From Candidatus Colimorpha onthohippi (lineage in GTDB: Bacteria > Bacteroidota > Bacteroidia > Bacteroidales > P3), in the NCBI GenBank assembly GCA_018064565.1, contig JAGHVA010000052.1, positions 2,220-66,219 of the forward strand: a stretch of DNA of 64,000 bases. Direction: 5' to 3'. Made by a program: the position numbers and the translations under genes. Positions within the stretch are counted from its first letter, which is position 1; each line of letters opens with the position of its first letter. Shown piece by piece: positions 1 through 1,735 of this stretch. A model generated the notes under the pieces. That model was not told the origin of the DNA, made no database searches, and was given only the letters and a program-made list of their open reading frames with translations.

Positions 1-1735
1 CCGTTACGATACCACCGATAGGCAAAATAAGGCACATAGTCATGATCTTCGCCATCGGGATAATGGTTCACAACCAAGAGATTGTTTTCGTACGTCCGCA
101 GTTGAGGCTTGTCATAATCAACAATGGTAAGATAAAGTGTCATCACACTGTCGCAACCTTGAAGCGTCTGAACCGAATCGGGCGAATGGTAACATCCCGA
201 CTGGTAAAACACCGACCCCATCCACCTGTAACTATAGCCCACTACCACATACACGTTGTCATGATACGATGGGTTGACCGTAAGAGAGACCACCTCCACA
301 CTGTCGCAGCCAGCGGCAGTCTGCCCCAACTGATACACAAAAGTGGTTGACTTGCGGTAAACCTGATCATCTATCCACCGAATGCTATCGCACACCGTAG
401 TGTCAACATCCAATCGGTACGAGTTGTCAATAATGATATCTGCATGCACTACGCTATCACAACCATACATCGATCGTAACGCACGTTGCAATCCCATAGT
501 CGTGGTGGTATAAGTACGGTTGTCTATCCACTGGTAACGGTTGCAGGCTTTGATAACCACCGACGTGTCGTGCGATGGATACACTTTAATATTCGTATTA
601 TGTATGCTGTCGCAACCATCAACGGAAGTATATGGAGTTTGCACTCTCGTGGAGGCGGTATAGTCTGTTCCTTGCCACGTCAGTGTATCGCATGCCGCTA
701 TAGTTGTGTCGTAACGATACACTGGCAGCACGGTAAGATCCAGTATAACCAAGCTGTCGCAACCCGCATGATTTCGCATGCGATAAGTAGCGGTGCCCGA
801 CTGCGCATAGACCATGCCGTGCCATTCAAACGGTCCGCACGACCGAGCGGCGGTGTCGCCCGTTGAATTGCTCGATATAGTCAACTGCAATATCGTCAAA
901 CTGTCGCAACCATATTGGTTTTGCGCCCTCGATGTGTAAGTGCCCGAACTCCTGTATATATTACCATTCCAGATATACTGATGACACGCAAATTGCGGGA
1001 TTGTGGTTGTATCGGTCGGCAAGATTCGTACATTGACCGCTGTGATACTATCGCAGCCATACACTGTAGTATCCGTAACCGAGAGCAACTGCGACTGCAT
1101 GATAGTGGTATCATGCCATGTGAAATGGTGACAGCCAGAACTATCGGAAGTATCATGATACGACGGATGTATCGTTAGATGCAACGTAATCGTAATTCCA
1201 CAGTCGTTGCTTGAGATAAGCTGTTGATATGTACCACTTTGTGTATAGACACTGTCTGCAAATGTATAGCTATCACATGCCGATATCGTTGTATCTATCT
1301 CGGGTATTAAACTTATGACGAGGTTCAATCGGACAACACTATCGCACCCATAGGCAGAATGCAACGAATCGACAGCAACAGTCGAAGTGCTGTAACTGTT
1401 GCCGTGCCACACATAGTCGTGACATGTGGTTACAGATGTATCTATTTGATAGTTTGGATATATCGCGACCCGATAGGTAACAGAACTATCGCACTGCCCC
1501 TCGACTGTGCGACCCGCAGACAAGGTAATATCCCGACTCTCGGTTATAGTATTAGTTCCTAAAATGAGTTGCTGGCAGGCTGGAGTATCAATCACAGTAT
1601 TTGCAGAATAGTTTACCGTTAGATATAATGTATTGACACTGTCGCACCCCATGTCGGTAATCAACGAATCGTAATACACACCCGAGGATTGAAGCACCTG
1701 CCCGCACCATGTGTAGCTGTCGCATACCGACTGAT
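1..1735 (-). repeat. In-frame tandem coding repeat, period 141-153 nt (47-51 aa), at least 11 copies
   Basis: The plus-strand motif CTGTCGCAACC or a close variant (reverse complement encodes GCDS) recurs at about 148, 301, 454, 607, 754, 901, 1048, 1198 (degenerate), 1339, 1486 and 1639. All spacings are multiples of 3. The protein modules follow C-x2-Y-x-W-x-G-x2-Y-x2-SG-x-Y-x(8-12)-GCDS-x3-L-x-L-T-[VI]. Confidence 0.8.

Follow-up and report, generated by a model that had tools for sequence, protein, structure and literature searches.

Tandem small beta domains acting as the stalk or fibre of type IX secretion system (T9SS) cargo are a known kind of architecture, and the array analysed here belongs to it. 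The closest solved example is GhpA, the grappling-hook protein of Aureispira (PDB 9flp, 9flw), a T9SS substrate whose stem consists of 52 small 'Ig-like' repeats (bioRxiv 10.1101/2024.01.29.577165). Cryo-electron microscopy (cryo-EM) of GhpA revealed disulfides linking neighbouring domains and glycans on every domain, and its repeats of ~50 amino acids (aa) form a seven-stranded, heptameric tube ending in a hook (bioRxiv 10.1101/2024.01.29.577165). We analysed a stretch of 64,000 nucleotides (nt; hereafter the window) of contig JAGHVA010000052.1 from Candidatus Colimorpha onthohippi, at the left end of which a gene for a C10 family cysteine protease encodes 11 tandem modules of 44-51 aa with conserved cysteines. 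We consider it likely that this array is the rigid, disulfide-stapled stalk of a secreted, T9SS-tagged C10 protease, and that stalk is possibly O-glycosylated.

Several other repeat families provide points of comparison. The SprB repeat (PF13573), Ig_7 (PF19081), PKD_6 (PF19408), Flg_new_2 (PF18998) and BACON are likewise tandem beta domains upstream of T9SS sorting domains, but none of their models, that of the SprB repeat included, matches the module even at E ≤ 1. The module instead shows a signature of its own, C-D-S-Y-x-W-N-G-x-x-Y-x-x-S-G-x-Y ... G-C-D-S-(V/I)-x-T-L-x-L-T-(I/V). With T9SS C10 proteases of the type of interpain A from Prevotella intermedia the host protein shares the I69 pro-domain, the C10 domain, the Cys and His motifs and the Por_Secre_tail sorting domain; compared with such Bacteroidota proteases, the 11-module array is an accessory. 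In Gram-positive adhesin stalks (Rib, SasG E-G5 and isopeptide-bonded domains), reinforced tandem small beta domains project a functional head. The array would follow the same working principle with unrelated folds, phyla, secretion and anchoring, and its reinforcement would be the cross-junction disulfide proposed below, as opposed to an isopeptide bond or Ca2+.

The conserved cysteines of the array most likely staple each junction between neighbouring modules, a conclusion that we base on covariation. Across 5,127 junctions of the family, the first cysteine of one module, Cys1(n), and the second cysteine of the next, Cys2(n+1), were lost jointly 177 times against 9.3 expected (odds ratio 514, p 1.8e-244), in events drawn from 57 proteins. 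Direct coupling analysis (DCA) likewise found Cys1(n) and Cys2(n+1) strongly coupled, and found no coupling between the cysteines of one module. Joint loss within a module was uncorrelated, at 5 against 8.5 expected for module n and 4 against 14.2 for module n+1, and the control pair Cys1(n) and Cys2(n+2) was lost together 3 times against 6.4 expected. These counts do not support the earlier note on this DNA, made from the letters alone, which had proposed one disulfide within each small unit. Additionally, 37 of the 43 junctions that have Cys1(n) without a canonical Cys2(n+1) carry a cysteine at position -8, in strand 1 of module n+1. Position -8 couples to columns 29 and 31, where strand 5 begins, and thus a cysteine there looks like a relocated partner.

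The ends of arrays follow the same pattern. Cys1 is missing from 25% of last modules but from only 4% of internal ones (p 1e-64), with Cys2 of last modules unaffected, and Cys2 is missing from 9% of first modules as opposed to 4%. An additional 'cap' cysteine 11-13 residues ahead of Cys1 occurs in 13.5% of first modules and in 0% of internal modules. The window protein fits these end patterns, having glycine in place of Cys1 in module 11 and a cap cysteine, Cys674 (window 1761-1763, minus strand), 13 residues before Cys1 of module 1, where it is a candidate partner of module 1 Cys2. Pairing the protein by the scheme 674-713, 687-764, ..., 1131-1210 accommodates 22 of the 24 cysteines in 11 pairs, with a spacing of 74-79 residues, or 39 for the cap. 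Under this scheme Cys1(n) would bond Cys2(n+1) to give a disulfide staple at every junction, Cys674 would serve module 1, and the last module would do without Cys1. Two extra cysteines, Cys693 of module 1 (window 1704-1706, minus strand; in Y-T-W-C-G) and Cys1197 of module 11 (window 192-194, minus strand; in S-G-C-Y-H), have no partner in the junction scheme.

The modules themselves are well delimited. The array spans residues 687-1224 (window 114-1724, minus strand, as are all features of this gene), and a hidden Markov model (HMM) trained solely on modules from other proteins recovered 10 of the 11 at independent E-values (i-E) of 2.3e-8 or lower, the remaining one being degenerate. The same HMM found the module absent from every other open reading frame (ORF) of the window. 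Module 1 lies at 1578-1724 (Cys687 and Cys713, besides the extra Cys693; i-E 2.2e-14) and is followed by the degenerate module 2 at 1425-1577, which keeps both cysteines (Cys736, Cys764) at an i-E of 0.24. Modules 3 (1278-1424; Cys787, Cys813; i-E 4.2e-13), 4 (1134-1277; Cys836, Cys861; i-E 8.2e-12) and 5 (987-1133; Cys884, Cys910; i-E 2.3e-8) precede the three that we modelled with AlphaFold2 (AF2), namely modules 6 (840-986; Cys933, Cys959; i-E 5.9e-16), 7 (693-839; Cys982, Cys1008; i-E 6.5e-15) and 8 (546-692; Cys1031, Cys1057; i-E 9.5e-9). Beyond these come modules 9 (399-545; Cys1080, Cys1108; i-E 2.2e-8) and 10 (246-398; Cys1131, Cys1159; i-E 1.1e-9), and finally module 11 (114-245; i-E 3.2e-9), which retains Cys2 (Cys1210) and contains the extra Cys1197.

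The earlier note had counted at least 11 tandem two-cysteine modules. Eleven are indeed present, but ten have both cysteines and the last has only Cys2, and the array stops there, the full-length protein continuing past the window edge into a domain of ~80 aa and a T9SS C-terminal domain. Both example peptides quoted in that note are found in the translation. Nine copies of GCDS lie between residue 691 of the open frame and the window edge, a stretch of 587 aa for which composition predicts 0.012; module 2 has QCDS in its place and module 4 has DCGI. The period had been given as 141-153 nt and the GCDS-coding sequence as a common 11-mer; the second-cysteine codons are in fact spaced 144-153 nt apart, and the GCDS-coding 12-mers are non-identical, differing at synonymous sites. 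Pairwise identity between modules is 16-46% for protein and 30-52% for DNA, and Tandem Repeats Finder (TRF), run on positions 1-4000, reported no DNA tandem repeat because the copies are too diverged. Thus, the divergence of the copies, the synonymous differences in their GCDS codons and the lack of a TRF repeat support the proposal of an old, diverged array, which is neither a recent duplication nor an assembly artefact. Across 3,954 nt the window is identical, with 0 mismatches, to an independent contig from Logan (run SRR10505693).

The fold of the module can be outlined from a structure prediction and residue couplings. An AF2 model of modules 6-8, built from a 44-row alignment, has a predicted local distance difference test score (pLDDT) of 91.6 and is all beta with five strands per module, in keeping with the beta-rich unit foreseen from the letters. 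Its topology was taken from mean-field DCA of 5,127 non-identical two-module windows (effective number of sequences, Meff, 3941). Antiparallel couplings connect strands 4 and 5 (16-34, 18-32, 20-30 and 21-29), parallel couplings connect strand 5 to strand 1, which runs ahead of Cys1 (-2/38, -6/34, -7/31 and -8/29), and a hairpin is coupled to strand 5 through W6-L33 and Y11-L35, accompanied by C1-I37. Between modules, the couplings were A1-B27, A(-2)-B27 and A38-B25. Cys1 is therefore coupled to column 37, the far end of an 11-residue strand that begins at Cys2 (column 27). These couplings imply that the chain enters a module at one end and leaves it at the other, and the two cysteines of one module would sit at opposite ends, about one strand length (~30 Å) apart. 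Judged from secondary structure and couplings, the module would be a five-strand up-and-down unit entered via strand 1 and left via strand 5, in which a short Y-x-W / x-x-Y hairpin would pack its aromatics onto leucines of strand 5. Such end-to-end topology suggests that modules stack head to tail into a rod.

Comparison of the model with known structures points weakly to GhpA. Its neck (9flp_A) was the top Foldseek match in the PDB (E 5.7e-6, probability 1.00, TM 0.36, rmsd 9.5 over three modules, 13% identity), and further matches were to rod-forming adhesin domains, including Rib tandem domains, at far weaker scores. GhpA and the array have in common a T9SS sorting domain and long tandem series of small beta domains forming a rod. 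Inter-domain disulfides are seen in the GhpA structure, whereas in the array they are deduced from covariation; the one GhpA disulfide that the paper specifies covers 152 residues and those proposed here ~75; and GhpA is a heptameric tube with a hook, whereas the array carries a protease. When PDB sequences were searched with the array, with a 3-module profile (for which the best 60 of 232 weak matches were considered), with an Aureispira homologue or with a segment of a giant protein, no sequence similarity to GhpA or any other PDB chain emerged. A 5,877-aa giant member of the family (P0268) was considered as a GhpA orthologue and is not detectably related to it. Antibody light chains, matched by the 3-module profile at E ~1e-3 through a 'SGSGTDFTLTISS..YYC' stretch, were taken as a motif-level coincidence.

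The position of the array in its protein and in related proteins fits a spacer. It sits between the T9SS sorting domain and a head in which the protease is joined by BACON and lectin-like domains. Of the 120 best whole-protein homologues, nearly all of them C10 peptidases, 49 have 2-19 modules at the array position and 71 have none. A module-free homologue that we scanned (P0130) has Flg_new_2 and BACON repeats there, and FN3 and PKD families are listed at that position in the precomputed Pfam column only. In a rumen relative (L004), two modules directly precede the sorting domain. Variable length, interchangeability and end-to-end topology all fit a spacer or stalk. The array would hold the protease and the binding domains tens of nm off the outer membrane as a rigid and likely protease-resistant spacer; if strand 5, with its 11 residues, sets ~3 nm for each module, a rough estimate of the total length of the array is 30-40 nm.

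C-terminal surface anchoring of type A T9SS cargo is established in Porphyromonas. If the window protein were anchored in the same way, via its processed C-terminus, the array would be proximal to the cell and the protease would be the distal head. The earlier note had described a stalk or adhesin array displayed distal to the protease: the stalk position is borne out, the array may or may not act as an adhesin, and the order would be reversed in a C-terminally anchored protein.

Assignment of the host protein is straightforward. The plus strand of positions 1-1800 is closed in all three frames, and the coding frame lies on the minus strand, where an open frame runs from 3833 to 3 and exits through the left window edge, with a start codon at 3780-3782. 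The partial gene (3-3782) covers residues 1-1260 of 1,392, the last 132 codons being past that edge, and its product is 100% identical to MBQ0015654.1 (P0121), a 1,392-aa 'C10 family peptidase' of the metagenome-assembled genome (MAG) Candidatus Colimorpha onthohippi. From its N-terminus, the protein comprises a signal-like segment, an I69 pro-domain, the C10 protease, BACON, a lectin-like domain and the 11 modules, after which a small domain leads to a T9SS type A sorting domain. A hydrophobic N-terminal segment, judged a signal peptide from sequence alone, precedes the Inhibitor_I69 pro-domain (3462-3731; residues 18-107; PF13734, E 1.4e-11), and the Peptidase_C10 catalytic domain follows at 2772-3344 (residues 147-337; PF01640, E 3e-68). 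The catalytic domain aligns to interpain A 3bba (E 1e-44) and to streptopain, and retains both the Cys in TGCVATAMAQ and the His in GHAFV. This Cys stands opposite an Ala in chain 3bb7 (TGAVATATAQ), which we take to be a catalytic-Cys mutant of interpain A. With pro-domain, catalytic domain, catalytic Cys and His all present, the predicted protein is a clear member of Peptidase family C10.

The BACON domain (2400-2663; residues 374-461; PF19190 / PF13004) is followed by ~220 aa that form, in the AF2 model (pLDDT 86.5, predicted TM-score (pTM) 0.82), a lectin-like beta-sandwich at about 1773-2399 (up to 2444). Its best fold match in the PDB by Foldseek is the lectin-like domain of Cwp84 (4ci7, E 1.6e-4), a surface cysteine protease of Clostridioides difficile; no Pfam family matched it above threshold, the matches to Lectin_like and DUF4082 being weak. 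This domain is present once or twice in many C10 homologues. After the array, positions 3-113 encode the start of the ~80-aa domain, the remainder of which, known from P0121, is outside the window, as is the Por_Secre_tail at P0121 residues 1321-1390 (PF18962 E 4e-7, TIGR04183 E 1.2e-11). A C-terminal sorting domain combined with a predicted signal peptide marks the protein as putative T9SS type A cargo. Upstream on the same strand (3833-9652) are ddl (D-Ala-D-Ala ligase), a GSCFA-family gene and dnaE (DNA polymerase III alpha); the gene context is ordinary chromosomal and housekeeping, and neither a mobile element nor a dedicated secretion locus is evident beside the protease gene. The nearest C10 relatives in the genome contigs scanned are 30-38% identical.

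The module belongs to a very large family. A 3-module profile (A1) searched against 1.84 billion cluster representatives matched 30,909 proteins at E ≤ 1e-3, 22,050 at E ≤ 1e-10 and 11,222 at E ≤ 1e-30, each representing a cluster at 50% identity. As to the taxonomic distribution, which the earlier note had suggested mapping, named members are all Bacteroidota, among them Aureispira, Saprospiraceae, Paludibacter(aceae), Niastella, Brumimicrobium, Crocinitomicaceae, Chitinophagales, Draconibacterium and Bacteroidales. The 150 best profile matches reach 7,061 aa and have a median of 35 modules, with a maximum of 82-86 depending on the run; giant members, of 5,000-7,000 aa, are mostly modules plus a sorting domain. 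By our count, a T9SS sorting domain, of type A or B, is present in 83 of the 120 best array homologues. Modules of the family follow the consensus C-D-S-Y-T-W-N-G-x-T-Y-T-x-S-G-T-Y-T-x-T-L-T-N-A-x-G-C-D-S-V-V-T-L-x-L-T-I-N. In a second subtype, I-C-x-G-(D/E)-S-x-x-(F/I)-x-G-x-x-(Y/L), Cys1 comes two residues sooner and the Y-x-W is absent; this subtype accounts for 1,970 of the 6,067 harvested modules, about a third, and occurs in P0268 and other giants. Repeat number varies by whole modules, as had been proposed for checking: in one 90%-identity cluster of giants, proteins of 6310, 6261, 6214 and 6165 aa (P0241, P0392, P0390 and P0391) have 58, 57, 56 and 55 modules, the window protein's own cluster having a single member.

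Pfam-A and NCBIfam models do not capture this family, as had been supposed from the letters for Pfam. The window array has no match in Pfam-A (2025 copy) at E ≤ 0.1 and no NCBIfam 20.0 model has a significant stretch on it, and giant relatives gave only summed matches to either collection, with 0 significant stretches. Labels such as DUF3553, ATE_N, TMEM181_GOLD, DUF7316, CpeT, bpX5 and Invasin_D3, which Pfam gives to homologues, were rejected as sums of weak fragments with 0 significant stretches, and some such sums exceed the curated cut-off (87 bits against 33 for Invasin_D3). Spurious summed labels of this kind, probably false, are seen in the precomputed annotations of homologues P0001-P0120, P0242 and P0346. 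Literature searches on the motif, T9SS repeats and disulfide stalks yielded no account of the module. We conclude that the module constitutes a sequence family of its own, very large and uncurated, which has a specific pattern of junction stapling. Among viral proteins, the closest fold match was the BFVD entry A0A8D9FS04, a 1,423-aa 'putative signaling protein' of an uncultured marine phage (E 3e-11, 21% identity), which may carry the same module, or whose contig may be a misassigned bacterial one.

The residues that follow Cys2 raise the possibility of glycosylation. The general O-glycosylation motif of Bacteroidota, for proteins exported past the inner membrane, is D-(S/T)-(A/I/L/V/M/T) (PMC8550257), and the near-invariant D-S-(V/I/L/T) after Cys2 matches it. 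The 543-aa array holds 22 matches to the motif against 4.5 ± 2.0 in shuffled sequences, and the motif directly follows Cys2 in 82% of the 6,067 family modules. Each module may thus carry a glycan at D-S-(V/I/L/T), a proposal that we make tentatively from the motif, with the balance tilting somewhat against it.

Other explanations of the array can be set against a stapled stalk. An independent bead, each ~49-aa module being closed by its own Cys1-Cys2 disulfide, would suit the 86% of family modules that have exactly two cysteines and the 10 of 11 modules here that keep both. Uncorrelated loss within modules and very strongly correlated loss across junctions make it very unlikely, as do the placement of Cys1 next to column 37 and of Cys2 at column 27, roughly 30 Å apart, and the end effects and partner relocation, which fit inter-module pairing only. 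We are more hesitant about modules that act as ligand-binding or adhesive units, for example on glycans, beyond a spacer role. The conserved aromatics Y4, W6, Y11 and Y17 could be read in that way, giant members consist mostly of modules and a sorting domain, and the fold neighbours are adhesin stalks and fibres. However, the aromatics show the coupling to strand 5 leucines that is expected of core residues, Thr, Ser and Asn predominate at the variable positions, the head already has BACON and lectin-like domains, and unrelated repeat types fill the array position in homologues, so that we consider a binding role unlikely.

By analogy with the GhpA heptamer, the array could instead drive side-by-side assembly into a multi-stranded fibre, GhpA with its ~50-aa repeats in a seven-stranded tube being the top structural match; we give this little credence, since there is no sequence similarity to GhpA and the array has just 11 modules and follows a protease head that is bulky. 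Collapse or misassembly of the repeat, a concern raised in the earlier note, is scarcely credible: we found no point in its favour, the copies are diverged and free of any TRF repeat, the independent contig agrees at every position compared, and the frame is intact through to the sorting domain. Several observations do weigh against the stapled, possibly glycosylated stalk that we prefer. Module topology and the disulfide are derived from covariation and secondary structure, and the fold match of the model to GhpA, at TM 0.36 and 13% identity, is weak. About 10% of family modules have a single cysteine, and thus a staple is not obligatory, and the scheme leaves Cys693 and Cys1197 of the window protein unpaired. 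Anchoring is established for another organism, Porphyromonas, and the protein here could be released rather than surface-anchored. Additionally, DCA couples D28 and S29 strongly to L21 and N23, and thus their conservation may be structural instead of glycosylation-driven.

The pairing pattern amounts to a design rule, of one disulfide per junction, a cap cysteine where the array begins and a last module without Cys1. Such stapling would explain how arrays could remain straight and withstand extracellular proteolysis, and the rule can be used to locate the ends of arrays and to engineer rods with a chosen length. The family also represents an annotation gap, as a module present in about 31,000 clusters is without a Pfam-A or NCBIfam model and generates misleading summed matches. 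Whether the family as a whole is a phylum-wide stalk module of T9SS cargo, with >30,000 clusters and up to 86 copies, in which every junction is disulfide-stapled and has an O-glycosylation site beside the staple, is to us a question whose affirmative answer falls just short of an even call. If true, this disulfide-laddered glyco-rod would be to Gram-negative bacteria what isopeptide-reinforced stalks are to Gram-positive ones. For the Bacteroidales of gut and rumen, the array suggests how surface C10 proteases are held off the cell.

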